Shown here: positions 1 to 19,644 of the stretch, piece by piece
How the letters are laid out: each line of letters opens with the position of its first letter
How positions within the stretch are numbered: the stretch's first letter is position 1
Virus record (IMG/VR): IMGVR_UViG_2648501186_000019
Location: 1-19,644 of that record
DNA: 19,644 nucleotides
Origin: a virus
Taxonomy: Duplodnaviria > Heunggongvirae > Uroviricota > Caudoviricetes
Direction: 5' to 3' (one strand)
Notes under the pieces: generated by a model
What the model was told of the DNA's origin: nothing
What the model saw: the letters and a program-made list of their open reading frames with translations, nothing else
The model's database searches: none
Position numbers and translations under genes: made by a program

Positions 1-273
1 ATGAACATCGGTAAAGCAATCATCAACTACGCAGCACGTCGCAACATGGACATTACCTTGATTGACGATGAGACCGTGGCGTTCTGGGAAGCGGATAACG
101 ATTGTGAATGGATGTTCTCCTACATGATTGGTAATGATGGTTTCCTCCACTTTAAAGGGAATGTGTATCTGCCGCAGGAGATTAAAGAAGAATTACCAGC
201 GTGCATCGATACAGACAAGAAGCTGAAAGAAGTAATCAACTTTATCGCAAACGAGTTTATCAGCAAGAAGTAA
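1..273 (+). CDS. hypothetical protein (90 aa); ATG at window position 1, so the true start may lie upstream
   Basis: Open frame 1-273 ending in TAA at 271-273. No recognisable motifs. The antisense ORF 120-581 is judged spurious. Confidence 0.45.
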   Translation: MNIGKAIINYAARRNMDITLIDDETVAFWEADNDCEWMFSYMIGNDGFLHFKGNVYLPQEIKEELPACIDTDKKLKEVINFIANEFISKK

Positions 274-285
274 GGCAGCAAAACA

Positions 286-672
286 ATGTTCAATATCATG
301 ACTCGTAAATTTGGTGAGATGACTTTCGAGAAAGCTGGTGTTGCTCGTACCGAAGAAGAAGCAATGGCCTTAGTTCTGGTAGCACTGAGATCATCAACTG
401 AGATTATCGACGCTGAATATGTAGCCGCAGAAGGTGAGATTAACGAGATTAAAGCGGTGGCTAAGGAATTAGGTGTTAAAGGTTTCCGTAAGCTGAGACT
501 ATCCCGCGAGTCATATGTAATTGGTAAGCAAGGACAATACCTAGATGAGAATACCGTGATTATTCTACTGAATAAGATCACCCGCTATGGTTTCCAGATT
601 GAGCAATATAAAACGTGTTTCGAATTATACGAAAAAGGTTTGCTGGATACTCTGACCATCGTTCGCGCTTAA
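286..672 (+). CDS. hypothetical protein (128 aa)
   Basis: ATG at 286 follows the upstream stop by 12 nt with an AAGG Shine-Dalgarno-like sequence. Acidic, probably helical, no recognisable motifs. Confidence 0.55.
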   Translation: MFNIMTRKFGEMTFEKAGVARTEEEAMALVLVALRSSTEIIDAEYVAAEGEINEIKAVAKELGVKGFRKLRLSRESYVIGKQGQYLDENTVIILLNKITRYGFQIEQYKTCFELYEKGLLDTLTIVRA

Positions 673-686
673 TTAATTTCTAATTT

Positions 687-712
687 GGTGGGTGCAATTC
701 CCACCGCTTTTT
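687..712 (+). terminator. rho-independent terminator candidate
   Basis: Stem GGTGGG (687-692) pairs with CCCACC (700-705) around a 7-nt loop, followed by GCTTTTT (706-712), directly after the 128-aa ORF stop. Confidence 0.55.
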
Positions 713-729
713 AAACTGGAGAATCAAAC

Positions 730-810
730 ATGTTAGCTTTTATCTCATTCGTGGGAGGTAGTCTCACAACCATGATTAGTCTTTCTTATATTGTCGTTAG
801 TATGGGGTGA
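730..810 (+). CDS. speculative small hydrophobic peptide (26 aa, MLAFISFVGGSLTTMISLSYIVVSMG)
   Basis: ATG at 730 preceded by GGAG (717-720); the whole peptide is hydrophobic. Below the length cutoff of the ORF track. Confidence 0.2.
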   Translation: MLAFISFVGGSLTTMISLSYIVVSMG

Positions 811-813
811 GCA

Positions 814-939
814 ATGAAACAATTTCATGATGGCATTTCATCTAAGACATTCAAGAAAGAATATAGCGGATTGTGTATTAACTGGATTGATTTGATTGGT
901 GCGGTTGTGTTTGGTCTGGTAATTAGCATCAATTTTTAA
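814..939 (+). CDS. speculative small membrane peptide (41 aa) with a C-terminal hydrophobic helix
   Basis: ATG at 814, stop TAA at 937-939. Sequence MKQFHDGISSKTFKKEYSGLCINWIDLIGAVVFGLVISINF has a polar N-terminus and a C-terminal transmembrane-like segment. Confidence 0.25.
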   Translation: MKQFHDGISSKTFKKEYSGLCINWIDLIGAVVFGLVISINF

Positions 940-942
940 CGA

Positions 943-959: not shown

Positions 960-980
960 TCATTCAAAGAGGATTCAATT

Positions 981-1662: not shown

Positions 1663-3342
1663 ATGAAAACTAAACTGTATTCGTATATTCGCTTCTCTTC
1701 AATGAAGCAAGCGGATGGTAGTTCTTATGAACGCCAAAAGAGAACAGCCGCAGAGATAGCCGCAAAATATGACCTTGAACTGGTTACTTCCTATCAGGAT
1801 TTTGGTGTATCTGCATTCAAAGGGGCTAACAGTAGAACAGGTGCATTATCTCGTTTTCTGGATGAAATTGGTCGATCCGTTCCGGTTGGTAGCTGGCTGG
1901 TTGTGGAAAACTTAGACCGTATCTCTCGCCAATCCATCATTGAAGCACAAGAGCTATTTCTCTCGATTATCCGTAGGGGAATAACTATCGTAACTGGCAT
2001 GGATGGTAAGGTCTATAGCAAGGAATCGGTTAATGCCAATCCTATTGATTTGCTGTTGAGTGTCATGTTGTTTGCGAGAGCTAACGAGGAAAGTCAGACT
2101 AAGCGCAATCGTACTAACTCAAGCGCATTGATTAAGATTAAAGCTCATCAAGAAAATCCACAAAATCCGGCTGTTGCAATCGAGGAAATTGGAAAGAATA
2201 TGTGGTGGACTGATACCACATCTGGTTATGTGCTTCCTCATCCGGTCTTCTTCCCTATTGTTCAGGAGGTTGTGGAATTACGCAGGAATGGACGGTCAAC
2301 CGCCGAGATACTGGATCACCTTAACGCGACATACACACCACCACCAGCCGCAAGTCACAAGAGGCATTCAAACTGGTCACGGGCAATGATTGAAAGGTTG
2401 TTCCATACCCGCGCTTTGATTGGTATCAAGGAAATCTCTGTAGATGGCGTTAAGTATGAGTTAAAGGATTATTATCCTCGTGTGCTAGATGACGCTGAGT
2501 TTTATCACCTTAAGAAAAGCATTGGTGTTAGAGCATGTAACTATGGAGACAAGGAAGAAGTTAAACCTATTCCCTTGCTTAGTGGTGTTGGTCTATTGAA
2601 ATGTGAACATTGCGGTTCCGCTATGGTTAAGGTGAAAGGAACTAACAAACGTCCTAACCAATATCGTTATTCATGCGATGCAATGCGCTCTAGTCGTATT
2701 GCATGTGTGCATACAAACTGGAGTTTTCGAGGTGATCAATTAGAGAAAGCTGTATTGCAATTGCTGGCTGATAAAATCTGGATTGCTGAGGATAAGGCTA
2801 ATCCGGTTCCGGCTTTGAAAGTACAGATTGATGAAATATCACGCAAGATTGATAACCTGATTACCCTTTCTGCTATGACAGGAGCAACGAAGGAGTTAGC
2901 CGACCAGATTACTACCCTCAATAGCGAGCGTGAAACACTCTACAATCAGATTAAGATGGCAGAAGAGGAAATGTATTCTGTGGACTCTCAAGGCTGGGAG
3001 AAGCTCGCAGAATTTGATTTAGAAGATGTTTATAACGAGGATCGCATTAAGGTCCGGTTTAAGATTAAGCAAGCTCTAAAACGGATCGGGTGTAGCAGGA
3101 TTGACAAATACAAAAACTTGTTTGTACTGGAATACATTGATGGTAAGACCCAGAGAGTTGTAATAGAAAATTCAAGAGGACCGAGGAAAGGCCGGATCTT
3201 CGTTGATTTGAAGACCATCAATGATAGGCAGATTCTGGAGAGTAACGGGCTTGTTTTGCATCCATGTTTAGACATGCTGACAGATAAGAACTGGAAACCA
3301 GAAGAGGAAATACCAGGTCCATTACAGGAATTTGGAATTTAA
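1663..3342 (+). CDS. large serine recombinase (serine integrase/resolvase family), 559 aa from ATG 1663
   Basis: N-terminal catalytic motif YSYIRFSSMKQ...SYERQ (Y-x-R-x-S nucleophile region), a large central domain, a Cys-rich zinc-ribbon-like segment (CEHCGS...YSCD...IACVH) and a coiled-coil-like stretch. The track start at 1648 is TTG; ATG 1663 is preferred. Confidence 0.9.
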   Translation: MKTKLYSYIRFSSMKQADGSSYERQKRTAAEIAAKYDLELVTSYQDFGVSAFKGANSRTGALSRFLDEIGRSVPVGSWLVVENLDRISRQSIIEAQELFLSIIRRGITIVTGMDGKVYSKESVNANPIDLLLSVMLFARANEESQTKRNRTNSSALIKIKAHQENPQNPAVAIEEIGKNMWWTDTTSGYVLPHPVFFPIVQEVVELRRNGRSTAEILDHLNATYTPPPAASHKRHSNWSRAMIERLFHTRALIGIKEISVDGVKYELKDYYPRVLDDAEFYHLKKSIGVRACNYGDKEEVKPIPLLSGVGLLKCEHCGSAMVKVKGTNKRPNQYRYSCDAMRSSRIACVHTNWSFRGDQLEKAVLQLLADKIWIAEDKANPVPALKVQIDEISRKIDNLITLSAMTGATKELADQITTLNSERETLYNQIKMAEEEMYSVDSQGWEKLAEFDLEDVYNEDRIKVRFKIKQALKRIGCSRIDKYKNLFVLEYIDGKTQRVVIENSRGPRKGRIFVDLKTINDRQILESNGLVLHPCLDMLTDKNWKPEEEIPGPLQEFGI

Positions 3343-3403: not shown

Positions 3404-3437
3404 AATTTAATTGCGTTAGGCAGCGTAAGCAAGTTTC

Positions 3438-3474
3438 ATAGTAGTTTCCTCTAAAATAATAAGTTCACTACTAT
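3438..3474. repeat. inverted repeat ATAGTAGT / ACTACTAT with a 21-nt AT-rich spacer; CACTACT-like motif recurs at about 3492-3502 and 3559-3568
   Basis: Direct reading of the recombinase-helicase intergenic region; the two arms are exact reverse complements. Confidence 0.45.
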
Positions 3475-3618
3475 TTATCAGAGAAAATTGTCTTACTATT
3501 GCATTCTCTATCTGGATGTGGGTATAGGCGGGATTGAATACGGCAAAACTGAAACATTCCACTACTGCAATAAATCACTAAACAATATAAAGAATATTGC
3601 AAGTGTGGAGTGGAACTA

Positions 3619-5109
3619 ATGCAAGATATTAAAATTCATTTTCAAGATTACAGTTTCGTTAAGGTTGATTGCTCTCCTTCTATCGGAATGGAATTAAGAG
3701 ATTATTTCTCGTTTGAGGTTGAAGGGGCTAGGTTTAGCCCCCGTTACAAGTATTCTGGCTGGGATGGACGAATAAGACTGTTTACGCATGAAAACACCCT
3801 ACCAATTGGACTATTAAAAACGTTGGGTGTCTTCGTTAAAAATATGGGCTATTCAGTCTGGATTGACCCCAGATTGCTTGAGAAGGAAGATGTAACCAAA
3901 GACGCGATTAATGAATGGATTGATTCCTTAGAAGTGTATTCCGGTAGCAATAAAATCAATCCTTATTGGTATCAAAGGGAGGCAGTCTTTCAGGGTATCC
4001 ACAATCGCCGTAGAATGCTGGTTCTTCCTACCAGTGCCGGAAAGTCATTGATTGCTTGTATGCTGTCTCGTTGGTACTTAGAGAACTACACCGGAAAAGT
4101 GTTAATCATTGTTCCGACTACATCGCTAGTGGTTCAAATGAGGGATGATTTCATCGATTATAGGCTATTCCCTTATGAAGCAATTCATACAATGATGAGT
4201 GGTAGCGGGAAACATCCGGGAGACAGGTTAATCACGGTTAGTACATGGCAATCAGCGTGCAAGATGCCTCCTGAATGGTTCAAACAATATGGAATGTTGA
4301 TAGTTGATGAATCGCATAAGGCTAGTGCCAAAAATATTACCAATATCATTAACGGAATGAATCATTGCCAATTTAAGATCGGCATGACTGGTTCCCCTAA
4401 AGAATCAAAATGCCATCTTTTACAGTATGTCGGACTTTTCGGTGATATTTCTAAGATCGTGAGTATTGACCGCCTGATGGAAGAAGGGCAGGTGACAAAA
4501 CTGAAAATTAACTGTCTTTTCCTTCGTTATACCGATGAGGAATGTAGCGCGGTTAAGGGGCGAGAATATGCGGAAGAGATCAAGTATATTACATCTAACC
4601 CACGACGAAATAAGTTTGCTTGCAATTTGGCGCTAAAACTCGCTAAGAAGGGCGAAAACGTATTCCTGATGTTCCGCAATACTAAGCACGGAAAACTTAT
4701 GTATGATGCGTTACAGAAGGTACACGACAAGGTTTATTATATTGACGGTGGAGTTAAGACAGAAGAACGAGACGAGTTCAAAAAATTAGCGGAAGGGGAA
4801 ACAGGGATCATTTGCGTTGCATCCTATGGTGTGTTCTCTACTGGTGTTTCCATCAAGAACTTGCATCATGTTATTTTCGGTCATCCAGTGAAGGAATCAA
4901 CTATCGTTCGTCAGAGTATCGGTCGTGCATTGCGTAAACATGGTTCTAAGGATATTGCAACGGTCTGGGATCTTATAGATCATTTGTGTATATTCGGTCG
5001 TAACGGAAAAGTCAAGCATAAAAATTATGCGGTAAAACATGCACTTGAGAGAATCCGCTATTATTTGACCGACAAGTTCAGCTATGCAACTAAAACAATT
5101 GCTATATAA
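3619..5109 (+). CDS. uvsW: SF2 DNA helicase of the T4 UvsW type (497 aa from ATG 3619)
   Basis: Walker A LPTSAGKS, DExH box LIVDESHKA, motif III-like TGSP, C-terminal helicase motifs (VASYGVFSTGVSIKNLHHV, QSIGRALRKHGSK). The N-terminus MQDIKIHFQDYSFVKVDC and overall pattern track the T4 UvsW sequence as I recall it. RBS GGAG 8 nt upstream of ATG 3619; the track start at 3610 is GTG. Confidence 0.85.
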   Translation: MQDIKIHFQDYSFVKVDCSPSIGMELRDYFSFEVEGARFSPRYKYSGWDGRIRLFTHENTLPIGLLKTLGVFVKNMGYSVWIDPRLLEKEDVTKDAINEWIDSLEVYSGSNKINPYWYQREAVFQGIHNRRRMLVLPTSAGKSLIACMLSRWYLENYTGKVLIIVPTTSLVVQMRDDFIDYRLFPYEAIHTMMSGSGKHPGDRLITVSTWQSACKMPPEWFKQYGMLIVDESHKASAKNITNIINGMNHCQFKIGMTGSPKESKCHLLQYVGLFGDISKIVSIDRLMEEGQVTKLKINCLFLRYTDEECSAVKGREYAEEIKYITSNPRRNKFACNLALKLAKKGENVFLMFRNTKHGKLMYDALQKVHDKVYYIDGGVKTEERDEFKKLAEGETGIICVASYGVFSTGVSIKNLHHVIFGHPVKESTIVRQSIGRALRKHGSKDIATVWDLIDHLCIFGRNGKVKHKNYAVKHALERIRYYLTDKFSYATKTIAI

Positions 5110-5141: not shown

Positions 5142-5495
5142 TTATCCATGCCAGCGTGATTTTTTCGATCTGGAATCGATATGCGTAAAGGTTTTATATT
5201 TGCCTAAGCCGTATTGAGTAGGATATTTCCCATCAAGATAAGCATGGACAATATCAGGAGAAATTCCTTTCACTGATATGTCGGCCGCACGGCCTCGAAC
5301 ATGATAGCTATTGGTTGCACCGCCTACATTCTTGTTATGAGTCGGACAACGGTTCCCGCTGTTAATAATTACTGGTTTCCCGAAGTGTTCGCGTACATCC
5401 TCAAGAATTACCAGCAGTTCAGCGTCGATAGTATCATAATCACATTTTCCGCATTTACATTTAAATTCCTTGCGAGAAAAATGCTTGCTTAACAT
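5142..5495 (-). CDS. endolysin, zinc peptidase M15 family (L-alanyl-D-glutamate peptidase / D-Ala-D-Ala carboxypeptidase-like), 117 aa
   Basis: H-x6-D zinc motif (SYHVRGRAADI) and downstream His (FTHID), as in Peptidase_M15 endolysins. ATG at 5495 has a strong AGGGGG Shine-Dalgarno sequence; the track start at 5531 is TTG. No signal peptide visible. Confidence 0.8.
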   Translation of the reverse strand: MLSKHFSRKEFKCKCGKCDYDTIDAELLVILEDVREHFGKPVIINSGNRCPTHNKNVGGATNSYHVRGRAADISVKGISPDIVHAYLDGKYPTQYGLGKYKTFTHIDSRSKKSRWHG

Positions 5496-5505: not shown

Positions 5506-5853
5506 TTAGATGTATTGCATAAGATACCCAATAAATCTGAGTCCCTTAATGTAATAAGGTGCTGTGCCTATGCATACCGCTCGTGCATCACCAATACAAT
5601 TGAAGTTGTAAGGGTTAACTACATCAATCTCCTGCCCTACACGGAAGCGGTATTTAGGACGTTTAGCGAGTGTCGCAACACAAAACACTAACCCGTTACC
5701 ATCATCGCGGATCATTTGCTTGAATTGTTTATGCTTTACTCTCTTCGCCTCGTAATCAAGTGTCATTGATTCAGGGCTAATGCCATTGATAAAAATACCG
5801 GAAAGCTGGTCGACCGGATAAGTAGGAAATTCAGTGAAAATATTTTTAGCCAT
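5506..5853 (-). CDS. hypothetical protein (115 aa), translationally coupled to the endolysin
   Basis: Strong GGGGGT Shine-Dalgarno sequence before ATG 5853; the stop is 10 nt before the endolysin ATG. No TM segment and no recognised motif; three Cys. Confidence 0.6.
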   Translation of the reverse strand: MAKNIFTEFPTYPVDQLSGIFINGISPESMTLDYEAKRVKHKQFKQMIRDDGNGLVFCVATLAKRPKYRFRVGQEIDVVNPYNFNCIGDARAVCIGTAPYYIKGLRFIGYLMQYI

Positions 5854-5891
5854 GTTATACCCCCATAAGATTCTATGAGGGTATTTATGGA

Positions 5892-6497
5892 TTAAACGAA
5901 GTTGATTTTACCCATGAAGTGCTTTTTCATCTTCTTCTGGATATTCTTCTTCATCGTTTTCTCATTATCTTTCCAACTACCCATGATGTTACTACGGTCT
6001 GTTTTCTTCAACACTGCAACAAGTCGCTTCCCTAGCTTTTTCTTGTTCTTCATGTCGGCTTTAACGGATGGATCGAGAAGCAGTATTTTACCAGTCTTAG
6101 ATTTTGTGGTTACATACTTCCCTATTTTCTTACCGTTTCTGAGTTGTGGAATGTTACCAAACTGGTTAGTTCGGTCATCAGTTACAGGAACAAATTTCTC
6201 AATATTATTACCACCTTCAAAGTAATATTTTAAGTATTTTTCCTGATTCTTCATGATGAAAACACTATGGTAAGACGTTTTACCGCTTGAGCGTATCCGG
6301 TTGTATGAATTGACCGCTTTCTGTGTGAACTTGGTCGGTCGATCTATCCTTGAATTGACTTTCTTCTGCAACTTTACCCGCTCATCTATGACCGCTAAAC
6401 CCAAATCCCTATGAAAGCTATTACTAGCTTTCTGTTTCCAACTCTTGATATCTTTTTTTACTTTATCAATATTGGATGTGATTATTGGATTAGCCAT
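5892..6497 (-). CDS. highly basic lysine-rich protein (201 aa), function unknown
   Basis: AGGGGG Shine-Dalgarno sequence; ATG 6497 lies 1 nt after the upstream stop. Very Lys-rich with a poly-basic C-terminus (KKNIQKKMKKHFMGK). Confidence 0.6.
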   Translation of the reverse strand: MANPIITSNIDKVKKDIKSWKQKASNSFHRDLGLAVIDERVKLQKKVNSRIDRPTKFTQKAVNSYNRIRSSGKTSYHSVFIMKNQEKYLKYYFEGGNNIEKFVPVTDDRTNQFGNIPQLRNGKKIGKYVTTKSKTGKILLLDPSVKADMKNKKKLGKRLVAVLKKTDRSNIMGSWKDNEKTMKKNIQKKMKKHFMGKINFV

Positions 6498-6498
6498 G

Positions 6499-6669
6499 TT
6501 AGCCCCCTAATAACGAAAAGACCCCCGCCAGTGTCCTTAGCAATTGTTCATCCACGGTCATAGCCGGGAGTTCAAGCCCAAAGGACGTTAGCAGAGGTCT
6601 AATTGCTACGTTATAAGTGAGGGCGACAATCAAGAGATAACCAAAATATTTCTTAAGTTTATTCTTCAT
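6499..6669 (-). CDS. small membrane protein (56 aa from ATG 6669); holin-like or immunity candidate
   Basis: AAGGGG Shine-Dalgarno sequence 7 nt before ATG 6669. Sequence MKNKLKKYFGYLLIVALTYNVAIRPLL... has a basic N-terminus and one or two hydrophobic helices; no lipobox. Confidence 0.45.
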   Translation of the reverse strand: MKNKLKKYFGYLLIVALTYNVAIRPLLTSFGLELPAMTVDEQLLRTLAGVFSLLGG

Positions 6670-6688
6670 ATATTCACCCCTTTTATTA

Positions 6689-6967
6689 TTATTTTTGTCT
6701 GAGTAAATCGATAACTTGGTCAAATTTGGCGTCCATCGCAACCACTTTCTTCTCTATACCGTGAAGGGTTTGTTCCATGCGATAAACTCTCTCGGCGATC
6801 TGGTCATGGTTACTTTGCATTGTTTCAAACTTCTGATTAAACAATGCATCATTGGACTCTAATTTCGACAATCTATTTTCTGTTGCTATTTGATTTCGGT
6901 GAAGTCTCCATAATCCACCACAAATTAAGGCGATAACACCGATACCGCCATATATAATTTCAGTCAT
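6689..6967 (-). CDS. single-pass membrane protein with a coiled-coil domain (92 aa)
   Basis: N-terminal TM segment (IIYGGIGVIALICGGLW) followed by a charged helical region. GGGGG Shine-Dalgarno sequence before ATG 6967. First gene after the terminator downstream of the gpJ-like gene. Confidence 0.6.
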   Translation of the reverse strand: MTEIIYGGIGVIALICGGLWRLHRNQIATENRLSKLESNDALFNQKFETMQSNHDQIAERVYRMEQTLHGIEKKVVAMDAKFDQVIDLLRQK

Positions 6968-11324: not shown

Positions 11325-11978
11325 TTACTTTTTAGAGCTAAACCATTTTGATTCCGCGTTCCAGCGACCCGCCCTTGAGAAGAATAGATCGTTCTCGTTT
11401 CCTGGGTATGAGCGATGAATACCATCAGAAGCATGACTACGAGCGTTTTTATCGAGAACTTCCCAGATACTATTAAGCTGGAACTCTGATTCGTTGGTAC
11501 ATTCTTTATCCTTGTAGTCAATAGAAATATTGATGTTATCGACTACACCACGGAAAACAGGGTAAGTGGTTTCAACCTTGCCCGTGTTGGGGTTCAAGAA
11601 TACCATTTCGATTTTCACATCTGATTTATCGAATTGCTTGTTTCGAATGAGAGTAATGTATTCTTCTCGAACGTTCGAAACGTTAACGGTGATCCCGTTG
11701 TTGTTGATTTCTTTTTCTTCGGAGTTGGAAGAAATATCAAGAAAGTCACCGCTAGCGAGATAGGTAAATCCGTTATAGTCTAAGTCAAAGTACCCATCTG
11801 TAAGCCGTAGAACGTCCCCTGACGCGGTAATCACTTCGATAATGTGAAACATCGATCCGGTGGAAAAAAGCTGCGGTAGCGTCAATCTGGTAACTTCCTG
11901 CCCCGTCTGGTCGTTGTATACCTCGATAAAGTCAATATTGGTACAGAGTTTATTAAATGCGTCTTGAATAGTAGCCAT
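11325..11978 (-). CDS. minor tail protein, gpL-like (217 aa)
   Basis: Synteny (TMP, M, L, K, J) and N-terminal and mid-region resemblance to lambda gpL as recalled. Start ATG overlaps the upstream stop (TAATG). Lacks the C-terminal Cys cluster of lambda L. Confidence 0.55.
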   Translation of the reverse strand: MATIQDAFNKLCTNIDFIEVYNDQTGQEVTRLTLPQLFSTGSMFHIIEVITASGDVLRLTDGYFDLDYNGFTYLASGDFLDISSNSEEKEINNNGITVNVSNVREEYITLIRNKQFDKSDVKIEMVFLNPNTGKVETTYPVFRGVVDNINISIDYKDKECTNESEFQLNSIWEVLDKNARSHASDGIHRSYPGNENDLFFSRAGRWNAESKWFSSKK

Positions 11979-12538
11979 TATACATTCTCCACTAATTCAA
12001 ATTTCATCTTGCCAATCTGGGCGATGTTCCAATCGATGTTTTCAGTAGTGAGAAGAAATTCACCTTCAACGTTCTGATACTTGATCACCTCACCCGCTAG
12101 GACGTTCTGACGCAAGTTAGGGAAGAGTTTCATTTCACCACCTGATTTCACGTCTTCGGTGATCGTGTAGATTTTCTTGTGGTTCTCAAACTGGATGATA
12201 GTTCCCGCTTTCAGTGTTCCGGTGAAGTTGGAGAGTCTCACCTTACGCCCACCGCGAGCAGTACCAGCAGCAGCCGTAACCATCTGGCGTACATCACCTG
12301 TATATTTTGAAAAGTAAGACAGCGGAACAGTGAACGGACGACCAAAAAGGTGACGTGCTACAAATTCTTTTACTTCGTTAATATCCTGAGCCATGAAATT
12401 AGCTGTAAATTCTGCTTCATAGTAATGAATACCAGTAAAGCGACGCTGGAACTTACCAGAAATGGATTGCGCCTTGAAGAAAGGTTGTTTTGATTTAAGA
12501 GTAAAATCTGTGATTTTAATATTCTTGGATTTGAACAT
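11978..12538 (-). CDS. minor tail protein, gpM-like N-terminal region with a C-terminal extension (about 186 aa)
   Basis: First gene after the tape measure. ATG around 12538 is preceded by GGGGG inside the hairpin; the track start at 12574 is a GTG lying within the hairpin stem. Weak resemblance to lambda gpM in the first 100 residues. Confidence 0.5.
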   Translation of the reverse strand: MFKSKNIKITDFTLKSKQPFFKAQSISGKFQRRFTGIHYYEAEFTANFMAQDINEVKEFVARHLFGRPFTVPLSYFSKYTGDVRQMVTAAAGTARGGRKVRLSNFTGTLKAGTIIQFENHKKIYTITEDVKSGGEMKLFPNLRQNVLAGEVIKYQNVEGEFLLTTENIDWNIAQIGKMKFELVENV

Positions 12539-12589: not shown

Positions 12590-15109
12590 TTACATTCTAC
12601 GACGCTGGGCGTCTTCTACTGCTTGGGCAACAAGTTTCGGATGGCGTTTAATCGCTTCCATTACCATTGCATCAGAGCTATTAACGTTACCGCTAATTTG
12701 CAAAGGAGCATGTACCTCAATCGGCTGAGAGTTACCAGTGTTACCGGATTTCTGGTTAGCTAAGAAGTCTTTCAGATCGCCGTTAGTACGATCATCAACA
12801 ACTCGTTCCCCTTTCTGTAACAGCCATGTACCCTCACGCGGGATGTTATCAATACCGTCATGCGCCATACCGTCAACAGAGATTGATTTCATCTGCGCAA
12901 CACGAGCGATTGCAGAAGCATAGCTAGCAGCACCCATCGCAACACCCAACGGTCCAGGATACTTAGCCATAGCCTTAGTTGCGGCTTCGTGTGCGTTCAT
13001 CATACCCATTGCGATAGAAACGCCTTTCTGTGCTGCAAATAGTCCCTTAGTAACAGCGTTATTCTCTAAGCCAAATGCTTGTAACGCCTCACCAAATCCA
13101 CCGAACATATCCTGTGTATCTTGCAAGCGCATGTTATTGTATTTTAAGTCAATTTCACGCATTTTCTTTTGATGCGCTTCATTGAGTGCTTGCAGTGCTT
13201 TAAATTGTTCAGCTTGAGGCAGTTTATCAATGTTGGCTTTATGGGTAGCGTAATCAGCATTAGCATTATCAACATCAACGGCTTTCATCTCGTCAATAGT
13301 CTGATCACGTTCACCGAAGGAGTTAGCTAGACCACGAGATTTGATTTCTTGTAGTCCATCGGTCGCACCAGTACGGCCTTTGTAAGCATCTTCAATACGC
13401 TGTTTTTCTGCCAGATAATCCGCTAATTTGATGTTTTTATTCTGGTAGTTTTCTTCCAGATCTTTAAGGCTTTGTTCATAAACCTGTTTAGAAGCAGCCA
13501 ACATTTGCAGGGCTTCCATTGGATTTGCACCTAATACAGATTTACGGAAGTTTTCCGCGTTAGCATTAATTAGCTGGCGTCGTTTCTCTTCGTATTGTTC
13601 TTGCGTGATAATACCCTGTTTAAGAGCGTTATCTAACTTAGCAAGGTTTTCGGTAATCTGACGGTTAGAAGACGCCACAGCAGCTTGTGACGAGCTATAC
13701 AAAGAGATATTGATGGCCTTCAAATCATTGTAGGCTTTTTCTCTTAATTTTTTGGCTTCGTCTGCGGCTTTCTTCGCTGCATCTTTAGCTTTCTTGGTTT
13801 CTGGACAATCTGCGGCTGAATGCGCACCTTGCTTACATACAGGGCAAAGAGATTGAACACGGCGTTTATTCTCTTCTTCCTGTTTCTTTTTCAGTTCATC
13901 GGCTTGTGTTTGCAGTTCAGCAGCTTTGCGTTTGCGTTCTTGTTCTGCTAGATCTTCGAAGCTGGTTGCAGCACCGTTACTAACACCGCTTGCGATGGCT
14001 TCCTCTACCGCATCACCTAATGCTTTAGCACCTTTCTTGATGTTATCGGTAGTCAATGCTGGGATTTCAAAATCAAGAAAATCGGCATCAGCACCAAACC
14101 AGCCAGCAATAGTTTTACCACCCTTGCGGATCGCATTCTGTACTTTAGCGATAATCTCGGCTAGTTTGTTGTACAGATTAATCATTGTTTCCTGTACAGT
14201 TTTAACCGTCTTGATTATCGGGTTAATTGCTGTAAGTAGAGCATCCTTAGCTTTCTGGAATAACGGCGGGAGATTTTCGGTCACAAACTTACTAATAGCT
14301 TTCATACTCAAATAGAAAGTAGTATTAGTAAAATCCTTGTTGAAATAATCATAGATTAAGTTGAATCCTTTCGGGAGGAACGAAAATACATCCGCGAAAG
14401 CACCCATTACCGTTTTACCTAAAGCGGTCAAATTAGAACTTGCGTTTGAATACGCGGTCGCTGTTTCTTCTGAGACATAAGCGGCTTGTTGTTGGAGCTT
14501 AACTTGATGTTCCCAATAGTCGTTTGATTCAGACAAAGCACCGATCATCTTACTGGAATCAGAAGCAATTCGTTCCATACCCGCGATAATTTCAGAATGG
14601 CTTAGTCCTGCGGCTTTAGCTTGGTAATACCACATTTCAGCAGCTTTGCGACCGCCTTCTGGATCATCGGTAAAGGCTGCATAATCCTTGATATCGCCTT
14701 TGATCATTTTAAGCGCGGCTTGAAATTCCCCTGTACCGTCTCGCCATGCTTCCCCTAATTTCTCGGCTGCATCCTTGTTAATATCAAGAACTTTTTCGGC
14801 ATTCAGACCAAAGCCACTATAGACTTTTTCCATCTTCTGAATTTGTTCGATATTAACACCAAATTCTTTCGACATATTGGCATATTCGATAGCCATTTTT
14901 GCGCCACCAGCAGCAAGGGCAGTAAGAGCACCCAAAGCAGCACCAGCAGCCATCCCCAATGGACCCAGCTTACCTAACAATCCACTGATAGAGCCAGTTA
15001 AATTACCGACACCACCGGAGGCAAGACCATCAAGAATACCACTTGCTTTATCTGCGGCAGATTCAAGACCACCAGTAACGCCAGTAATATCAAATCTTAA
15101 TTCTGACAT
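12590..15109 (-). CDS. tail tape measure protein (839 aa)
   Basis: Position directly after the chaperone pair; length comparable to lambda gpH; long helical charged repeats and Gly/Ala-rich hydrophobic segments. Strong AAGAGG Shine-Dalgarno sequence before ATG 15109. Confidence 0.85.
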   Translation of the reverse strand: MSELRFDITGVTGGLESAADKASGILDGLASGGVGNLTGSISGLLGKLGPLGMAAGAALGALTALAAGGAKMAIEYANMSKEFGVNIEQIQKMEKVYSGFGLNAEKVLDINKDAAEKLGEAWRDGTGEFQAALKMIKGDIKDYAAFTDDPEGGRKAAEMWYYQAKAAGLSHSEIIAGMERIASDSSKMIGALSESNDYWEHQVKLQQQAAYVSEETATAYSNASSNLTALGKTVMGAFADVFSFLPKGFNLIYDYFNKDFTNTTFYLSMKAISKFVTENLPPLFQKAKDALLTAINPIIKTVKTVQETMINLYNKLAEIIAKVQNAIRKGGKTIAGWFGADADFLDFEIPALTTDNIKKGAKALGDAVEEAIASGVSNGAATSFEDLAEQERKRKAAELQTQADELKKKQEEENKRRVQSLCPVCKQGAHSAADCPETKKAKDAAKKAADEAKKLREKAYNDLKAINISLYSSSQAAVASSNRQITENLAKLDNALKQGIITQEQYEEKRRQLINANAENFRKSVLGANPMEALQMLAASKQVYEQSLKDLEENYQNKNIKLADYLAEKQRIEDAYKGRTGATDGLQEIKSRGLANSFGERDQTIDEMKAVDVDNANADYATHKANIDKLPQAEQFKALQALNEAHQKKMREIDLKYNNMRLQDTQDMFGGFGEALQAFGLENNAVTKGLFAAQKGVSIAMGMMNAHEAATKAMAKYPGPLGVAMGAASYASAIARVAQMKSISVDGMAHDGIDNIPREGTWLLQKGERVVDDRTNGDLKDFLANQKSGNTGNSQPIEVHAPLQISGNVNSSDAMVMEAIKRHPKLVAQAVEDAQRRRM

Positions 15110-15880: not shown

Positions 15881-15897
15881 ATTACGATATATTTATG
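15881..15897 (-). promoter_or_regulatory. CATAAATA box plus TATCGTAAT; second copy of the 15-nt motif seen at 945-959
   Basis: The - strand reads CATAAATATATCGTAATCATT; the box ends 31 nt upstream of ATG 15858 (30 nt at the + strand copy). It overlaps the stop codon of the 168-aa gene. Confidence 0.35.
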
Positions 15898-16399
15898 TGA
15901 TCTTTAAACTCTGCTTAGTGCCAGTCTTCTTAATGTTGGTAAGGAAAGCAGCCGGAGGATTGCTTAACCAATAGTAATGAAAACCACTTTGCATACTGTT
16001 ATAAGGAACAGTGACAGTAGCACCACCCAAATTAACGGTTATATTCCCCGCTCTACCGTTCTGGAGATATACAGCCATAGTAGGAGTACCGCCATTGAAT
16101 TGACCAACGATAACGCCAATCAGACGCCCTACGCCCACGTTTTCGGGGTTCTCCATAGATCCTTTACCGCGCATGTCAGTTACTGGATAGTTTGAAGCAG
16201 TTACACCCCAGTTATTACCCAATGAAGTAGACCACGATGCAGTAGCAACAACCGTATCCATACCACGACCACACATAGCACTCATGTTAGCTGGGCGACT
16301 AACCTTTAATGCGTTCATTGCTGCGGTCATCCATCGTTGACCAGTTACAGAAACAGCAGATGACCCGACCCAGCCGGGCTTATTAACGACATTTGCCAT
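15893..16399 (-). CDS. hypothetical tail-module protein (168 aa), Gly/Ser/Thr/Asn-rich
   Basis: GGAG Shine-Dalgarno sequence 9 nt before ATG 16399, just downstream of the terminator hairpin. Composition suggests a beta-rich structural protein; could alternatively be the tube subunit. Confidence 0.55.
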   Translation of the reverse strand: MANVVNKPGWVGSSAVSVTGQRWMTAAMNALKVSRPANMSAMCGRGMDTVVATASWSTSLGNNWGVTASNYPVTDMRGKGSMENPENVGVGRLIGVIVGQFNGGTPTMAVYLQNGRAGNITVNLGGATVTVPYNSMQSGFHYYWLSNPPAAFLTNIKKTGTKQSLKIT

Positions 16400-16443: not shown

Positions 16444-16573
16444 AAAATTAATTCTTAGCCTTGCGGCCTCGTTTTGCTGTGGCTTTCGCCGTAACTTCTT
16501 CTACTTCTGGAATCACCACCGCTTCATGTTCCGGCTGTGGTTCCGGTTCTATTAAAGGAAGTTCTTCGTTAGT

Positions 16574-17050
16574 TCATCCACCAACAGTAAAGATCTTCTG
16601 TGGAACGGGCTTGCCATCAACCGCAAACGTCAGTTCACGCTGTACGACGCTCTCGTCATCACCAGTCAGATTGACTTTAGAAATGAATCCGTTAAATGCA
16701 GTACGAATACCAGTCTGCTTATCCGCTGATACGTAATACTCTACTTTAATCTGGATTCGAGTGCCGTCTTCGGCAGCTTTAATGAGCTTCTCGTGTACCG
16801 CATCACCCGGAATGTAGTTGATCACCAGTTCCAGATCAGGAACGTTCAGTTTACCAACCAGCTTACGGTTATACTGAGAAGAGAACGACTTCACCTCAAC
16901 CGTGCCCCTCTCAATGGAGTAGGAAGGCCAACCAGCACACTCTTTAATTTCTTCGTATGCTTCATCAGCAAGATCGGTGTTAGTGGTATCAGCGTGATAG
17001 AACAGACTTACCAAACCACCAGTAAAAATATCTTTGAATTGTTGAGACAT
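16574..17050 (-). CDS. major tail (tube) protein candidate, 158 aa
   Basis: Strong AAGGGG Shine-Dalgarno sequence; located upstream of the chaperones and tape measure; size and beta-rich sequence typical of small siphovirus tube proteins. Ends in TGA, followed in the same frame by 41 open codons (16451-16573). Confidence 0.55.
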   Translation of the reverse strand: MSQQFKDIFTGGLVSLFYHADTTNTDLADEAYEEIKECAGWPSYSIERGTVEVKSFSSQYNRKLVGKLNVPDLELVINYIPGDAVHEKLIKAAEDGTRIQIKVEYYVSADKQTGIRTAFNGFISKVNLTGDDESVVQRELTFAVDGKPVPQKIFTVGG

Positions 17051-17080
17051 ATAATTACCCCTTAATTAAAATTGTTATTA

Positions 17081-17099
17081 CGGGGGAACTAGTCCCCCG
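17081..17099. terminator. GC hairpin CGGGGG-AACTAGT-CCCCCG between the fibre gene and the major tail gene; T-tract follows on the + strand
   Basis: 6-bp G/C stem with a 7-nt loop. The + strand continues ACTTTTATTATTT; on the - strand the U-run is interrupted. May be a bidirectional terminator or a processing/stability hairpin. Confidence 0.4.
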
Positions 17100-17106
17100 A
17101 CTTTTA

Positions 17107-19644
17107 TTATTTAGTTGCTTTCAGTTCGGCTAATTCAGCTTTAGTTTCGGCAAGTTCTTTAGCCATAGCATCAAACTTAGCGGTCATTTCCTGCATTGCT
17201 TTGATGATTAAAGCATTGACAGCAGAGTTAGAAATAGTCTTGATTGCTTCTGGATGTTCTGGATCTTCGGTGGATTGAATACCTACTGCTTCCGGCAATA
17301 CTTTTTCCAGATCCTGAGCAATAATACCTACTTCGCGTTTAATTACTGTGTCATCAGAAAGAGATTTAACTTTATCGTAGGTGTAGACTTTCAGGGAGTT
17401 TACTTTCTCTAATGCGCCGTCCTGTAATTCTTCCTTGTTAATTTTCAAACGGGAGTCGGAGCGAATGTAAACATCGTTAAAGCTACCGTTACGACCTGCG
17501 GTAAAGTCACCAGAGGCGTTAAAGTCAAAAGTTGCATCGTGTACGTGCATACGCACCATAGCATTACCGATAGTACCGCTAGGAACATGTACACCCATTG
17601 CTGCGATATGATATTTACCTTGATGGGTTGCTTTCCATACGTTATGAGCGGAATCGGTTGATTGTTGACAGTCGACCTGAATACCAGAAGCACGATCACG
17701 CCAGCTAGCCCAACTACCACCAGCAACGCTACCACGAATAAGACCATTACCGCCACCGGATACAGTGCCCGTTTCAAGGTGAATCATCTTACCGCCGAAT
17801 TTCCAGACTTCGGTTTGTTTCTCACCACGGAAGCGAATAACACCAGCGTCATCGCAATACATCAAGCCCAACTCTAAACCGTTTGGATCTCTAAACCAGA
17901 TGTGCTTATTGCCAGCGCGTTTAAACGAAATATCAGCACCAGTTGTTGTGATATTGCTAGCAACGTTTAGACTACCCGCCATAGAGAACAGAATAGGTCC
18001 AGTGCCACCCTGAGTACGTTCAGTATACCAGTGATAACTTGTAGCATCCTTACATTCAAAAACCTGTTTGCGTTGCTCGTTACCCCATGTGTGTAAGGTA
18101 AATTGAGACTGCGACCCCCGATTAGCATCAAATGCAATTTCACCAGATTCTACACGTACAAAGCCTTTAAAACGTGCAGTAATATTTCCGGTTTCATCAT
18201 TGCGTTCAGTAGAGAAATGTATACCTGTTGGGTCTTCTATTTGAAGAATGTTGTGTCGTCCACTGGCACTATCACCCAAATGGTTTATTTTCATGAAACC
18301 GCTAGCACCCTGACGCCCACTAGAAAAATGAAGAAATCCTTTTTCTACATAAACATCACCAGCAAAACGAGCAGCACGACTTGCACGTTCTAAGACTAAT
18401 GCACCTTCGTTACCATCACCACCCAAAGTAACATTACCGCTACCAAGATGGTAAATGAACGGACGATAGCCGTTCCAACTACCAAATTTATCATTTTCGG
18501 CAGTAGACAGAAGATATACGTTTTGACCATCATTACGCCAGAATGCACCATAGTTACCGTAAATCATACGGAATGCATCACTGTTAGCAGCTACATATTG
18601 ACCATTGGTGTATACAATTTTGGTAGCACCTGTGCTTAAAGATACTTGACCACTTGCTTCTAATTTAACAAAGTTTTTACCTTCGTCACTATACCATTGA
18701 AAATCGTTAGTATCTGTAGAACCAAAACCAAACCAGCCTTGACGTTTATTAGCCCCGTTTCGCTGATCCATATATTCAAAATAGTTACTACGACCAGTAG
18801 GACGCCACATACGAATCGCGTTATTGCCTTGCAGATGAAGTCTATCGACAAATAAACCATCACTACCAACAATTTTTAATACTTCTTTTTGGTCGGTGGA
18901 ACCAGTAGCCAAACGATACACATCACCTTGAACAGTTTCATGCCATATTGTTTCCGCCGCACGACTGCGGAATTTACGCATATATTTTTTATTGTTGTCT
19001 GGTACGTTATTAAGGCTCACAATATCATAGGTTGCTTGTGAGTTATTATCAAACATCAACGTTCCGGCTTTGTTTTCGGTGTTGAACATCGTAATAACAC
19101 GAGCATCGGTAACACCAACAGAAGGTTTAACGAGAGTTAATTCAGGAACATCATGTACTGTCAGAGTAACGCCATCAGTTTTACCGTATTCGACAATAAC
19201 GTTATCGGTGTAACGACCGTAGTTAACGTAGATATCGTAGTTATCACCGGAAGTATTAACCGCAAATACTTGATGAGTATTTTTAGAATTTCGACGATAC
19301 GCCGCAATACTAACGCCTTTCGGGTTATTGTTACCGGAACGGATGACAATTTCTACAAAGTCAACCTGATCATAAGAGTTAACGTTATAACCATTACCAC
19401 CGAAGATACGAAGCATTACCATTCGACCATTCTGTGGGATCGTAGCGGTTGCGATCTTGAAGTATCCACGAGTAGCATCACCAGAAGGAACGGTCATTCT
19501 AACGTTCTTGATGAACATCTTATCAACTTCGGCTTTGGTGTATGCACCAATCTCGCCAGGAGTCGGCTTATCACCTTCGTGATACATCTTATAGCTAAAG
19601 TTCTTCTGTCCTTCTCTATCAAAACCATAGGTTTCAACACGAGA
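17107..19644 (-). CDS. tail or neck fibre protein with a C-terminal intramolecular chaperone (peptidase S74-like) domain; 5'-partial, open to the window edge
   Basis: The frame stays open to 19644 (SRVETYGFDREGQKNFSYK precedes the first Met). The C-terminus (...YIRSDSRLKINKEELQDGALEKVNSLKVYTYDK...VGIIAQDLEKVLPEAV...AELKATK) matches the autoproteolytic chaperone domain of T5 pb1-type L-shaped fibres and endosialidases. The upstream body is Gly/Asn/Thr-rich, beta-type. Confidence 0.85.
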   Translation of the reverse strand, partial: SRVETYGFDREGQKNFSYKMYHEGDKPTPGEIGAYTKAEVDKMFIKNVRMTVPSGDATRGYFKIATATIPQNGRMVMLRIFGGNGYNVNSYDQVDFVEIVIRSGNNNPKGVSIAAYRRNSKNTHQVFAVNTSGDNYDIYVNYGRYTDNVIVEYGKTDGVTLTVHDVPELTLVKPSVGVTDARVITMFNTENKAGTLMFDNNSQATYDIVSLNNVPDNNKKYMRKFRSRAAETIWHETVQGDVYRLATGSTDQKEVLKIVGSDGLFVDRLHLQGNNAIRMWRPTGRSNYFEYMDQRNGANKRQGWFGFGSTDTNDFQWYSDEGKNFVKLEASGQVSLSTGATKIVYTNGQYVAANSDAFRMIYGNYGAFWRNDGQNVYLLSTAENDKFGSWNGYRPFIYHLGSGNVTLGGDGNEGALVLERASRAARFAGDVYVEKGFLHFSSGRQGASGFMKINHLGDSASGRHNILQIEDPTGIHFSTERNDETGNITARFKGFVRVESGEIAFDANRGSQSQFTLHTWGNEQRKQVFECKDATSYHWYTERTQGGTGPILFSMAGSLNVASNITTTGADISFKRAGNKHIWFRDPNGLELGLMYCDDAGVIRFRGEKQTEVWKFGGKMIHLETGTVSGGGNGLIRGSVAGGSWASWRDRASGIQVDCQQSTDSAHNVWKATHQGKYHIAAMGVHVPSGTIGNAMVRMHVHDATFDFNASGDFTAGRNGSFNDVYIRSDSRLKINKEELQDGALEKVNSLKVYTYDKVKSLSDDTVIKREVGIIAQDLEKVLPEAVGIQSTEDPEHPEAIKTISNSAVNALIIKAMQEMTAKFDAMAKELAETKAELAELKATK

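Follow-up and report, generated by a model that had tools for sequence, protein, structure and literature searches.

The window analyzed here, a 19,644-nucleotide stretch of DNA, is the attL-proximal, integrase-proximal left half (~19.6 kb) of a temperate siphovirus prophage of Escherichia coli of ~38 to 40 kb. With a probability of about 0.85, we read this prophage as one that carries T-even modules overwritten by recombination with phages of the genus Krischvirus (RB49-like Straboviridae); on the same reading, the parent prophage looks intact and its lineage has no isolated or classified representative. The mosaic gene content claimed in a preliminary description of this DNA proved real, the T4-like parts being recent acquisitions on a conserved backbone. 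Overall, its observation was confirmed in part and its interpretation supported in part; it had overlooked the prophage state, the truncation of the fiber gene at the window end, the homology of the fiber to gp37, and a gp38-like adhesin.

Integrated state and relatives of the element

Among 5426 complete E. coli genomes, 62 carry relatives of the element. The insertion interrupts hicB in RMDEC332 and ycdX in STEC1575, and the two prophages have a conserved left-end sequence in common. orf1 is 98.9% identical to the gene that opens the STEC1575 prophage, 40 bp from the ycdX junction; the window starts ~40 bp inside attL. As described earlier, the genes form a strict convergent layout of two arms, one on the plus strand (1 to 5109) and one on the minus strand (5142 to 19644), meeting at a bidirectional terminator. 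The two arms are alike in GC content (40.6% versus 42.0%). The T4-late-like promoters that had been proposed did not hold up, as TATAAATA occurs once in the window versus 1.69 occurrences expected by chance. The integrase arm and the junction of the arms contain the following features.

1..273, plus strand: orf1, small prophage-end gene, function unassigned (phrog_6147)
286..672, plus strand: orf2, function unassigned (phrog_14908); first gene of the RMDEC332 prophage
981-1322, plus strand: orf3, moron-like small gene with a transmembrane segment and a coiled coil
1352-1597, plus strand: orf4, moron-like small gene with a signal peptide
1611-1646: terminator following the orf3/orf4 pair
1663..3342, plus strand: large serine recombinase (integrase), 559 amino acids (Resolvase, Recombinase, and Zn_ribbon_recom; phrog_95 integrase)
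3379-3400: hairpin resembling a bidirectional terminator, downstream of the recombinase gene
3420..3618: remains of two CapR/T5orf172 genes (putative homing endonucleases), lost by deletion here but intact in most relatives
3619..5109, plus strand: uvsW, SF2 helicase (UvsW_N, ResIII, and Helicase_C)
4435..4983, plus strand: recent gene-conversion patch within uvsW (9 mismatches in 549 nucleotides, 98.4% identity to GoldenSnicker)
5115-5137: bidirectional terminator at the meeting point of the arms

A ribosome-binding site and leader are common to orf3 and orf4 (repeat D2). The serine recombinase, recognized earlier and borne out by a three-domain profile match, contains the catalytic motif YIRFSS, and its gene is 97.8% nucleotide identical to that of the hicB-integrated RMDEC332 prophage. 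It resembles the large serine recombinases of the phiC31/Bxb1/A118 class in domain composition, in the position of its gene at the prophage end, and in integration within host genes. Unlike members of that class, no close characterized homolog was found for it; the sole match in a PDB search was to a resolvase domain (E value of 3e-5).

In line with the suggestion of a little-studied siphovirus group that could not be placed, a nucleotide search of 50,697 phage records returned matches for only uvsW and the fiber gene, all to Krischvirus, and searches of phage records found no isolated phage close to the element. No near-identical, well-annotated reference emerged: the only close matches were automatically annotated prophage regions with 88 to 95% identity. 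The nearest tail module in the phage records, with 31 to 45% protein identity, is that of "Escherichia phage DCP80" (first ~25 kb of GenBank PQ671644), a doubtful record. The DCP80 record looks chimeric, with T4-like fragments. On our favored reading, the backbone of the lineage would pair the large serine recombinase, in convergent arrangement, with a lysis cassette and a tail module; it is conserved across prophages of Escherichia and Atlantibacter, and the Atlantibacter copies are without the T4-like parts.

The uvsW cassette

The T4-type UvsW helicase named in the preliminary description is genuine: in addition to its three domains, the protein matches the T4 UvsW structure 2OCA with an E value of 1e-183 and is 80.6% identical to Krischvirus UvsW over its full length. 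By segment, nucleotide identity to Krischvirus (RB49 group) is 67 to 73% in the 5′ part, then 96 to 98%, and 56% at the 3′ end. Homology begins exactly at the ATG, and, unlike Krischvirus, the prophage has no late promoter upstream of uvsW, no uvsW.1, and no T4 neighbors. Prophage copies of uvsW cluster with Krischvirus, well apart from Tequatrovirus. FDAARGOS_1267 carries an unconverted copy, 70% identical across the patch region and followed by a uvsY fragment; in this one relative the T4 synteny points to block capture of uvsW. The comparisons show that transfer of uvsW ran from a Krischvirus-like phage to the prophage.

The gene is accessory, present in 17 of the 5426 E. coli genomes and 17 of the 62 family copies, and was intact, with helicase motifs present, in 5 of 5 copies examined. 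It is under purifying selection in prophages (dN/dS of 0.04 to 0.12 among copies), and these low values could partly stem from repeated import from phages rather than from selection in the prophage. The product probably serves the phage as a recombination or R-loop helicase.

A different function is conceivable but, in our view, unlikely: uvsW, together with the CapR/T5orf172 genes of relatives, would be a weapon or homing platform against Krischvirus and not a housekeeping helicase. Either the helicase made by the prophage would unwind the origin R-loops of an incoming phage too early, or the nucleases would cut that phage near uvsW, and such encounters would have left the identical patches as scars. 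T4 UvsW is reported to unwind origin R-loops (Dudas and Kreuzer 2001), and both the strong purifying selection and the loss of the Krischvirus late promoter speak for this proposal. So does the location of uvsW in the integrase arm, in a variable cargo slot that separates the recombinase gene from the lysis genes and has other contents in 45 of 62 relatives. Of the 17 uvsW genomes, 13 have one or two extra genes between the recombinase gene and uvsW, mostly a GIY-YIG-annotated nuclease and a hypothetical gene, with CapR/T5orf172 found in all three copies checked. In other phages, nuclease genes of this type are markers of exchange boundaries (PMC10448857, which describes the CapR/T5orf172 family). 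In the window, however, both nuclease genes are deleted while uvsW is retained: what is left, at 3420-3520 and 3512-3618, matches the ends of the 391- and 185-amino-acid genes of L001. Furthermore, PADLOC defense models gave no match beyond generic helicase similarity, and the fiber gene is equally patchy with no nuclease nearby.

The long fiber and the gp38-like adhesin

Two further genes and one segment bear on the T-even component of the prophage.

15893..16399, minus strand: gp38-like tail fiber adhesin, 168 amino acids (Gp38_N, E value of 2e-15; phrog_1121)
17107..19644, minus strand: gp37-type long fiber protein (Gp34_trimer domain and C-terminal Peptidase_S74 intramolecular chaperone)
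17812..19107, minus strand: central fiber segment, ~1.3 kb, with Krischvirus-identical patches (patchwork 94 to 100% identical to kaaroe and Brandy gp37)

The fiber gene is truncated by the window end, its 5′ end lying outside; relatives encode 1162 to 1203 amino acids. A T5-type fiber chaperone had been proposed, and a Peptidase_S74 domain with an SDSRLK motif is indeed present at the C terminus, but the fiber itself is a homolog of T-even (Krischvirus) gp37 and not T5-type. It is 80% identical in protein sequence to residues 130 to 965 of gp37 from GoldenSnicker, through the C-terminal chaperone, and in a full-length relative the gp37 alignment starts at residue 71, with an N-terminal motif in common. 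Within the central segment, positions 19107-18595 are kaaroe-like (94 to 100%) and positions 18369-17902 Brandy-like (98 to 100%), and exact shared runs reach 212 nucleotides with kaaroe, 140 with Brandy, and 135 with GoldenSnicker. These likenesses contrast with the overall difference between a 165-kb virulent myovirus and a ~40-kb integrated siphovirus, and the prophage fiber has its own N-terminal part, with a ~200-amino-acid coiled-coil insert, and its own chaperone end. Parsimony would favor transfer of the fiber patches from phage to prophage. The near-identical stretches of fiber and helicase indicate, at the sequence level, recent gene exchange between dormant and lytic viruses.

The adhesin gene forms an insertion between the genes for the tube and the chaperones; DCP80 and Atlantibacter have no such gene there. 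Its product has the Gp38_N attachment domain of the T2/S16-type fiber tip, in which gp37 with a cleavable C-terminal chaperone carries a gp38 adhesin (PDB 6F45). The prophage fiber C terminus and adhesin N terminus match S16 gp37 (6F45_A) and gp38 (6F45_D), respectively, although weakly (E values of 2e-3 and 3e-4), and the adhesin, at 168 rather than 249 amino acids, is most like Stx-phage adhesins (44.6% protein identity). Because the tube gene separates the adhesin and fiber genes, unlike in the S16 system, and because Krischvirus gp37 works without a neighboring gp38, pairing of the two products is only putative.

That this lineage inherited uvsW and its gp37- and gp38-type genes from an ancestor shared with T4-like phages is very improbable. 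Every E. coli family member examined has a gp37-like fiber, and the prophage uvsW forms, in its 5′ part, an old, distinct branch; against this, the Atlantibacter and DCP80 backbones have neither uvsW nor a gp38-like gene and at most a faint gp37 match, and the patchy occurrence of uvsW, its grouping with Krischvirus, and the adjoining uvsY fragment also argue for acquisition.

We regard an assembly artifact, in which Krischvirus and prophage reads were joined, as very improbable: no closed E. coli genome carries the central fiber allele of the window above 87% identity and the nearest phage record itself looks chimeric, but the closed chromosomes CFSAN061761 and 2017.18.04CC carry the uvsW patch with 96 to 98% identity to RB49 and GoldenSnicker, the RMDEC332 fiber also has a GoldenSnicker-identical patch, and an independent isolate-derived prophage contig has, within the same prophage flanks, a kaaroe-like patch 99 to 100% identical to that of the window. 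The latter prophage also has a Brandy-like patch, different from that of the window.

The tail module, lysis genes, and proposed history

The remainder of the minus-strand arm encodes lysis and tail functions.

5142..5495, minus strand: Peptidase M15 (D-Ala-D-Ala carboxypeptidase-type) endolysin (Peptidase_M15_3, E value of 5e-28; phrog_894)
5506..6967, minus strand: four small late genes, namely p115, lysine-rich p201, transmembrane p57, and transmembrane and coiled-coil p92
7074..10856, minus strand: tail tip/central fiber protein, 1260 amino acids (Phage_Tail_Tip and Ig_GpJ_C receptor-binding domain)
10847..11275, minus strand: DUF6950 protein (profile match)
11325..11978, minus strand: baseplate hub protein (DUF2163/phiJL001 gp84 N-terminal domain)
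11978..12538, minus strand: distal tail protein, T5 pb9-like (weak match)
12590..15109, minus strand: tape measure protein, 839 amino acids (PHROG tape-measure families), as described earlier
15173-15520, minus strand: tail assembly chaperone T (weak Phage_tail_T match; −1 frame, open from 15571)
15550-15858, minus strand: tail assembly chaperone G (profile match)
16574..17050, minus strand: major tail tube protein (profile families; weak lambda-type tube match)

Chaperones G and T are probably joined by a frameshift, with a possible slip site, GGTAAAG, at 15559-15553, and the DUF6950 protein may contain an NlpC/P60-like Cys/His motif. From their position and transmembrane segments, the four small late genes are presumed to supply the holin and lysis accessory functions; the Atlantibacter relatives retain p115 and p201, and DCP80 retains p201 as well. 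These relatives have the same order of tube, G, T, tape measure, distal tail protein, hub, DUF6950, tip, and p201. They are distant (27 to 53% protein identity, with 53% for the hub in Atlantibacter prophages) and, unlike the window, are without uvsW, a gp38-like gene, and a clear gp37-type fiber.

A lambda-like tail tip with an M/L/K/I-J pattern had been described, and only the J component survived. The tip protein is J-like only in its C-terminal ~400 amino acids (about residues 930 to 1260); its last ~190 match lambda J 946-1131 (E value of 2e-35), and it is 35 to 37% identical to the J proteins of Stx and lambdoid phages. That the window is an ordinary lambdoid phage region is nevertheless highly improbable and already largely refuted, since these matches, the G/T-type chaperones preceding the tape measure, and the weak Phage_tail_T and tube matches stand against a lineage-specific tip N terminus of ~840 amino acids with no sequence relation to J, three genes rather than four between tape measure and tip with no match to the M, L, K, and I families (a pb9-like distal tail protein, a phiJL001 gp84/GTA-type DUF2163 hub, and DUF6950), a serine recombinase as integrase, and zero nucleotide similarity to lambdoid phages in the phage records searched.

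On our favored reading of Krischvirus recombination, the E. coli branch would have gained, on top of the conserved backbone, modules drawn from the T-even gene pool: a full-length gp37-type fiber, matured via its C-terminal intramolecular chaperone; the gp38-like adhesin; and, in a minority of copies, uvsW, taken up as one block from a Krischvirus-like genome. When Krischvirus phages infect, homologous recombination with them, the probable cellular route, would keep overwriting parts of the fiber and uvsW, leaving patches 94 to 100% identical to extant virulent phages within prophage-specific flanks. Krischvirus DNA has ordinary cytosine, and that of RB49 is unmodified (PMC4041780). The virion would combine a J-like central tip with gp37/gp38-type side fibers. 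Mosaic temperate siphoviruses are an already known kind of phage, of which this lineage is a new member; its interest lies in what appears to be ongoing exchange between a prophage and a virulent T4-like genus.

Organization and placement of the prophage

The ORF listing, GC skew and terminator scans all divide the window into two convergent arms, with + strand genes from 1 to 5109 and − strand genes from 5142 to 19644, and the arms converge on a bidirectional terminator-like hairpin (5115-5137). This bears out the two-arm layout given in the preliminary description. A difference in base composition between the arms was not found, with GC contents of 40.6% versus 42.0% (41.6% overall) and no compositional break in GC or GC3.

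Features of the window, by arm and strand
Integrase arm, +: four small genes of undefined role
1663-3342, +: large serine recombinase (Resolvase, Recombinase and zinc ribbon domains)
3619-5109, +: UvsW helicase (UvsW_N, ResIII and Helicase_C)
Late arm, −: M15 endolysin and four small genes, including membrane proteins
Late arm, −: 1260-aa tip protein
Late arm, −: DUF6950 protein, DUF2163 (phiJL001 gp84-type) hub and pb9-like distal tail protein
Late arm, −: 839-aa tape measure, with T and G chaperones (T in the −1 frame)
Late arm, −: gp38-like adhesin, 168 aa (Gp38_N)
Late arm, −: tail tube protein
Late arm, −: gp37-type fibre gene, running past the window end

Relatives were detected by megablast in 62 of 5426 complete E. 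coli genomes, all of them chromosomal and at 88-95% identity. The RMDEC332 element, of ~40 kb, splits the antitoxin gene hicB, while that of STEC1575 splits ycdX and carries a diverged recombinase (87.7% nucleotide identity). Both conserve a left-end sequence of ~40 bp immediately before the first phage gene, the ATG of which is position 1 of the window. Beyond the window, relatives encode head-tail proteins, a capsid protein of ~670-690 aa, a portal, a lambda gpA-type large terminase, a Rha regulator and a small terminase. Given these insertions into host genes, the common left end, and the head and terminase genes outside the window, we conclude that the window is the attL-proximal half of a temperate siphovirus prophage. 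That it is a cryptic remnant carries low weight, as the examined genes are intact and relatives occupy two different integration sites. The hicB-inserted member (L001 11849-11968 and L002 42094-42405, both in NZ_CM177021.1) leaves the toxin gene hicA intact and has the 12-bp repeat TTTAGGTTTGCC on both sides of the insertion; the ycdX-splitting junction lies at L003 13620-13961 of NZ_CP116044.1. Scans for tRNA genes and Rfam families gave no match, and a sigma-70 promoter scan was uninformative because it returned fewer sites than shuffled sequence.

The serine recombinase recognized earlier belongs to the large serine recombinase integrases, having all three domains, the active-site motif YIRFSS and, in relatives, copies at the prophage-host junctions in hicB and ycdX. 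Upstream in the same arm, orf3 and orf4 encode small membrane or secreted proteins, and positions 965-1027 and 1336-1398 are 75% alike over 63 nt, with the same ribosome-binding site and first codons; the two genes look like duplicated or cassette-like morons.

Across 50,697 phage records, nucleotide matches came from uvsW and the fibre gene alone, and every one of them is in Krischvirus (RB49-like Straboviridae). At the protein level, the closest tail module lies in the first ~25 kb of PQ671644 ("Escherichia phage DCP80"), with the same gene order and 31-45% identity. The mosaic of a siphovirus lineage that the preliminary description could not place is thus upheld. The rest of the DCP80 record is T4-like sequence in scrambled order, in which the rIIA and spackle genes are duplicated, on account of which the record is probably a chimeric assembly. 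Labelled Gaprivervirus and 141 kb long (positions 1-80000 covered here), it holds a siphovirus structural module syntenic with this prophage.

When GTDB species representatives were scanned with a hub alignment, this backbone turned up in Atlantibacter only, in two genomes at 27-53% protein identity, in the order tube, G, T, tape measure, distal tail protein, hub, DUF6950, tip, p201 and p115, followed by a convergent serine recombinase; a tape-measure scan of the same representatives gave no match. uvsW, the gp38-like gene and a clear gp37-type fibre are all absent from these Atlantibacter genomes. The backbone is therefore an unclassified temperate siphovirus lineage of Enterobacteriaceae, to which the T-even-like genes were added in the E. 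coli branch. Their absence from Atlantibacter leaves little weight for the T4-like genes having been inherited from an ancestor of the lineage. In the literature searched, neither the prophage family nor a prophage-borne uvsW was described. Overall, the element is a mosaic temperate siphovirus with a serine integrase, a kind already known, integrated in the chromosome, in which fibre, adhesin and helicase modules of T-even type are set on a conserved backbone.

Tail tip and late arm

Whereas the 839-aa tape measure was identified correctly from the outset, the lambda-like M/L/K/I-J tip proposed with it was not recovered. The three small proteins between tape measure and tip match a pb9-type distal tail protein, a DUF2163 hub and DUF6950, and Pfam, PHROG and PDB sequence searches placed none of them in the lambda M, L, K or I families; at the sequence level, homologues of gpM, gpL, gpK and gpI are thus missing. 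Likeness to J is confined to residues ~844-1260 of the tip protein (the last ~400), which match Phage_Tail_Tip, Ig_GpJ_C and lambda J 946-1131 (E 2e-35) and are 35-37% identical to J of Stx and lambdoid phages, and no J match was found in the N-terminal ~840 aa. A lambdoid origin, for which this C-terminus speaks, accordingly has low weight. T4-late-like promoters also failed to materialize: TATAAATA occurs once against 1.69 expected, without enrichment, and that sole copy (943-950) stands just upstream of orf3 in the integrase arm rather than upstream of late genes. The preliminary description is therefore partly confirmed in its observations (serine recombinase, UvsW, tape measure and layout, but neither the lambda tip nor the promoters) and partly supported in its interpretation.

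Several further features of the late arm were noted. A lysine-rich 201-aa protein (5892-6497, −) without a family match lies between the tip and lysis genes and is kept at the same position in DCP80 (33%) and the Atlantibacter prophages (28%). Near-identical terminator-like hairpins (AAGCCCTGCC...GGGGCTT, then a T-run) at 15138-15163 and 16419-16443 (−) lie on either side of the gp38-like, G and T genes. A relative has the hairpin again behind its capsid gene (L001 36193-36271, in NZ_CM177021.1), and it is apparently a terminator that the late operon uses repeatedly. The T frame is open in the −1 frame for the 22 nt ahead of the G stop codon (15553-15571, −), and GGTAAAG just upstream of that stop, though not a canonical heptamer, is consistent with a programmed G-T frameshift.

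A T4-type uvsW gene and its neighborhood

Assignment of the helicase to the T4 UvsW family held: UvsW_N (E 2e-34) is accompanied by ResIII and Helicase_C, the T4 UvsW structure 2OCA is matched across residues 3-494 (E 1e-183), and the GKS, DESH, TGS and QSIGR motifs are present. The true start is the ATG at 3619 (MQDIKIHF), exactly where nucleotide homology to Krischvirus begins. The window lacks the T4-type context (inh - uvsW - uvsW.1 - uvsY) with its late promoter, including any counterpart of the TATAAATA promoter upstream of GoldenSnicker uvsW; the gene is flanked instead by the recombinase and nuclease-gene remnants upstream and by the terminator and then the endolysin downstream. uvsW was found in 17 of the 5426 genomes, always within this family of prophages, and in STEC1575 its position is taken by other genes; it is thus an accessory gene of the family.

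Identity to Krischvirus changes from segment to segment along the gene. Over the 5' part (3619-4434), the prophage copies group in a clade of their own, 89-98% identical to each other, 67-73% to Krischvirus and 58% to a Tequatrovirus. Across the middle (4435-4983), identity to GoldenSnicker and RB49 is 96-98% for the window (9 mismatches in 549 nt), CFSAN061761 and 2017.18.04CC, as against 87% for RMDEC332 and 70% for FDAARGOS_1267. The 3' end (4984-5109) is prophage-specific, at 56% identity to Krischvirus. Since RB49-group uvsW is uniform from end to end and an unconverted copy exists among the prophages, the patch passed from phage to prophage.

FDAARGOS_1267 (NZ_CP069522.1, L017 4757-4924) retains, downstream of uvsW and on the opposite strand as in T4-like genomes, a 55-codon 3' fragment of uvsY, the T4-type recombination mediator gene, the amino-acid sequence of which is identical to GoldenSnicker UvsY. 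This arrangement points to capture of a contiguous T4-like segment that was later trimmed. All five copies examined are intact with their helicase motifs, and dN/dS among prophage copies is 0.04-0.12 in the unconverted part, indicating that uvsW is maintained.

In most uvsW-bearing relatives, two genes combining a CapR zinc finger with a T5orf172/MUG113 nuclease domain lie between the recombinase and uvsW, and the STEC1575 slot holds diverged members of the same family; the proteins are mutually 27-33% identical. The window has lost both by deletion, with remnants only at 3420-3618. In the relatives at L001 15716-17615, L003 16922-19064 and L017 1370-3107, the space between recombinase and lysis genes always contains such a diverged pair. 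This domain combination defines a putative homing endonuclease family reported at boundaries of phage-phage genetic exchange and co-opted by satellites (PMC10448857, PMC8096241). When the region of the relatives that holds the nuclease genes was compared with phages at the nucleotide level, no match was obtained, uvsW alone being Krischvirus-like there. In Krischvirus PTE-Eco09 (PQ306574, L011 1-596), a homing endonuclease gene lies immediately upstream of uvsW and overlaps it; a 596-nt part of that gene gave no tblastn match to the prophage T5orf172 proteins (E <= 0.01). uvsW may be a recurrent homing-endonuclease neighborhood.

The fibre and recombination with Krischvirus

The T5-type fibre chaperone described earlier stands as a domain (Peptidase_S74, E 9e-14), but the entire protein is homologous to gp37. 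Its motif SDSRLK, at residue 729 of the 845 visible, fits the S74 cleavage consensus Ser-Asp-x-Arg-x-Lys, and autocleavage of this intramolecular chaperone is predicted. These 845 residues are 80% identical to GoldenSnicker gp37 residues 130-965, with a dN/dS of 0.22. The full-length RMDEC332 fibre (1162 aa) carries the gp37 N-terminal motif in its first 51 residues (gp37 residues 4-54), then a coiled-coil repeat insert of ~200 residues, and from residue 262 is 74% identical to gp37 residues 71-965. Collinear homology including both the N-terminal motif and the C-terminal region thus makes it a distal long-tail-fibre subunit of the Krischvirus gp37 type.

The gp38-like gene does not adjoin the fibre gene. 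Its product matches Gp38_N (E 2e-15) and, over its full length, the phrog_1121 adhesin family, although it is much shorter than T2/S16 gp38. The fibre C-terminus matches S16 gp37 (6F45 chain A) and the gp38-like N-terminus S16 gp38 (6F45_D), which suggests a T2/S16-type tip. Pairing of the two remains putative, because no gp38 gene is annotated beside gp37 in the records of GoldenSnicker, Brandy and kaaroe that were checked, and the nearest counterparts of the adhesin are in Stx phages (44.6%). A 79-aa ORF downstream of GoldenSnicker gp37 was considered as a gp38 relative and rejected as unrelated.

Sliding-window comparison resolved the fibre gene into a fine mosaic. Positions 19107-18595 are 94-100% identical to kaaroe (212-nt exact run) and 18369-17902 are 98-100% identical to Brandy (140, 81 and 102 nt in exact runs). 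Both flanks, the 5' one (19644-19108) and the 3' one that encodes the chaperone (17460-17107), are prophage-type, at 88-100% identity to family members and 58-83% to Krischvirus. The central segment was found in no closed E. coli genome above 87% identity. An independent, isolate-derived IMG/VR contig (UViG_2648501730_000022) carries the kaaroe-like patch at 99-100% identity to the window and a different Brandy-like patch at window positions 17818-17642 (97-98%), and RMDEC332 and the window have in common a GoldenSnicker-identical patch at 18149-17981. The patches are therefore real and differ among family members; as the same kaaroe-like patch recurs in a separate contig, chimeric assembly has low weight. 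Two IMG/VR contigs (L008, L018) are family members, neither of them the source of the window.

Together, we take the alignments of uvsW and the fibre gene to show repeated recent recombination between the prophage family and Krischvirus. The exchange would proceed by homologous recombination during Krischvirus infection of lysogens, possibly through survivors of aborted infection or through recombinant temperate genomes escaping in their own capsids. DNA of the Krischvirus RB49 has ordinary cytosine (PMC4041780) and can therefore be incorporated by the bacterial chromosome, which may explain why Krischvirus, and not the hmC-containing Tequatrovirus, is the partner. The virion would have a central tip ending in a J-type receptor-binding domain and side fibres of a gp37-like trimer that folds with its S74 chaperone, sheds it and is possibly capped by the gp38-like adhesin, while UvsW would serve the phage as a branch-migration or R-loop helicase.

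Alternatively, interference with infecting Krischvirus would be the reason for which the uvsW/nuclease cassette is retained, a reading that we regard as improbable and less likely than this best explanation. Scanned with PADLOC, uvsW, the small ORFs of the left arm and the cargo genes of relatives gave no specific defence model, with generic helicase-core matches for UvsW only and none for the cargo genes, so that no known anti-phage system was recognized. In its broadest form, also doubtful, prophages and virulent Krischvirus would constitute one recombining gp37/uvsW pool helped by unmodified DNA, with the uvsW/T5orf172 cassette retained for interfering with or parasitizing Krischvirus by premature R-loop unwinding or nuclease-driven gene conversion. 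If true, a "stolen replication gene" would serve as prophage-encoded immunity.

Recombination with infecting Krischvirus, our preferred reading, bears on the usual view that virulent T4-like phages are genetically isolated from temperate phages. Stretches of 100-500 nt at 98-100% identity tie extant Krischvirus isolates to E. coli prophages in both a receptor-binding fibre and a core recombination gene, adding direct sequence evidence of ongoing gene flow between the two and documenting an unclassified temperate siphovirus lineage of Enterobacteriaceae. They also pose the puzzle of a T4 replication/recombination helicase that is retained in a prophage under purifying selection, and offer a concrete, testable system for lytic phage-prophage recombination. 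Host-range modules for Krischvirus, a genus used in therapy cocktails, may reside in the prophages of about 1% of E. coli genomes and possibly be supplied by them.
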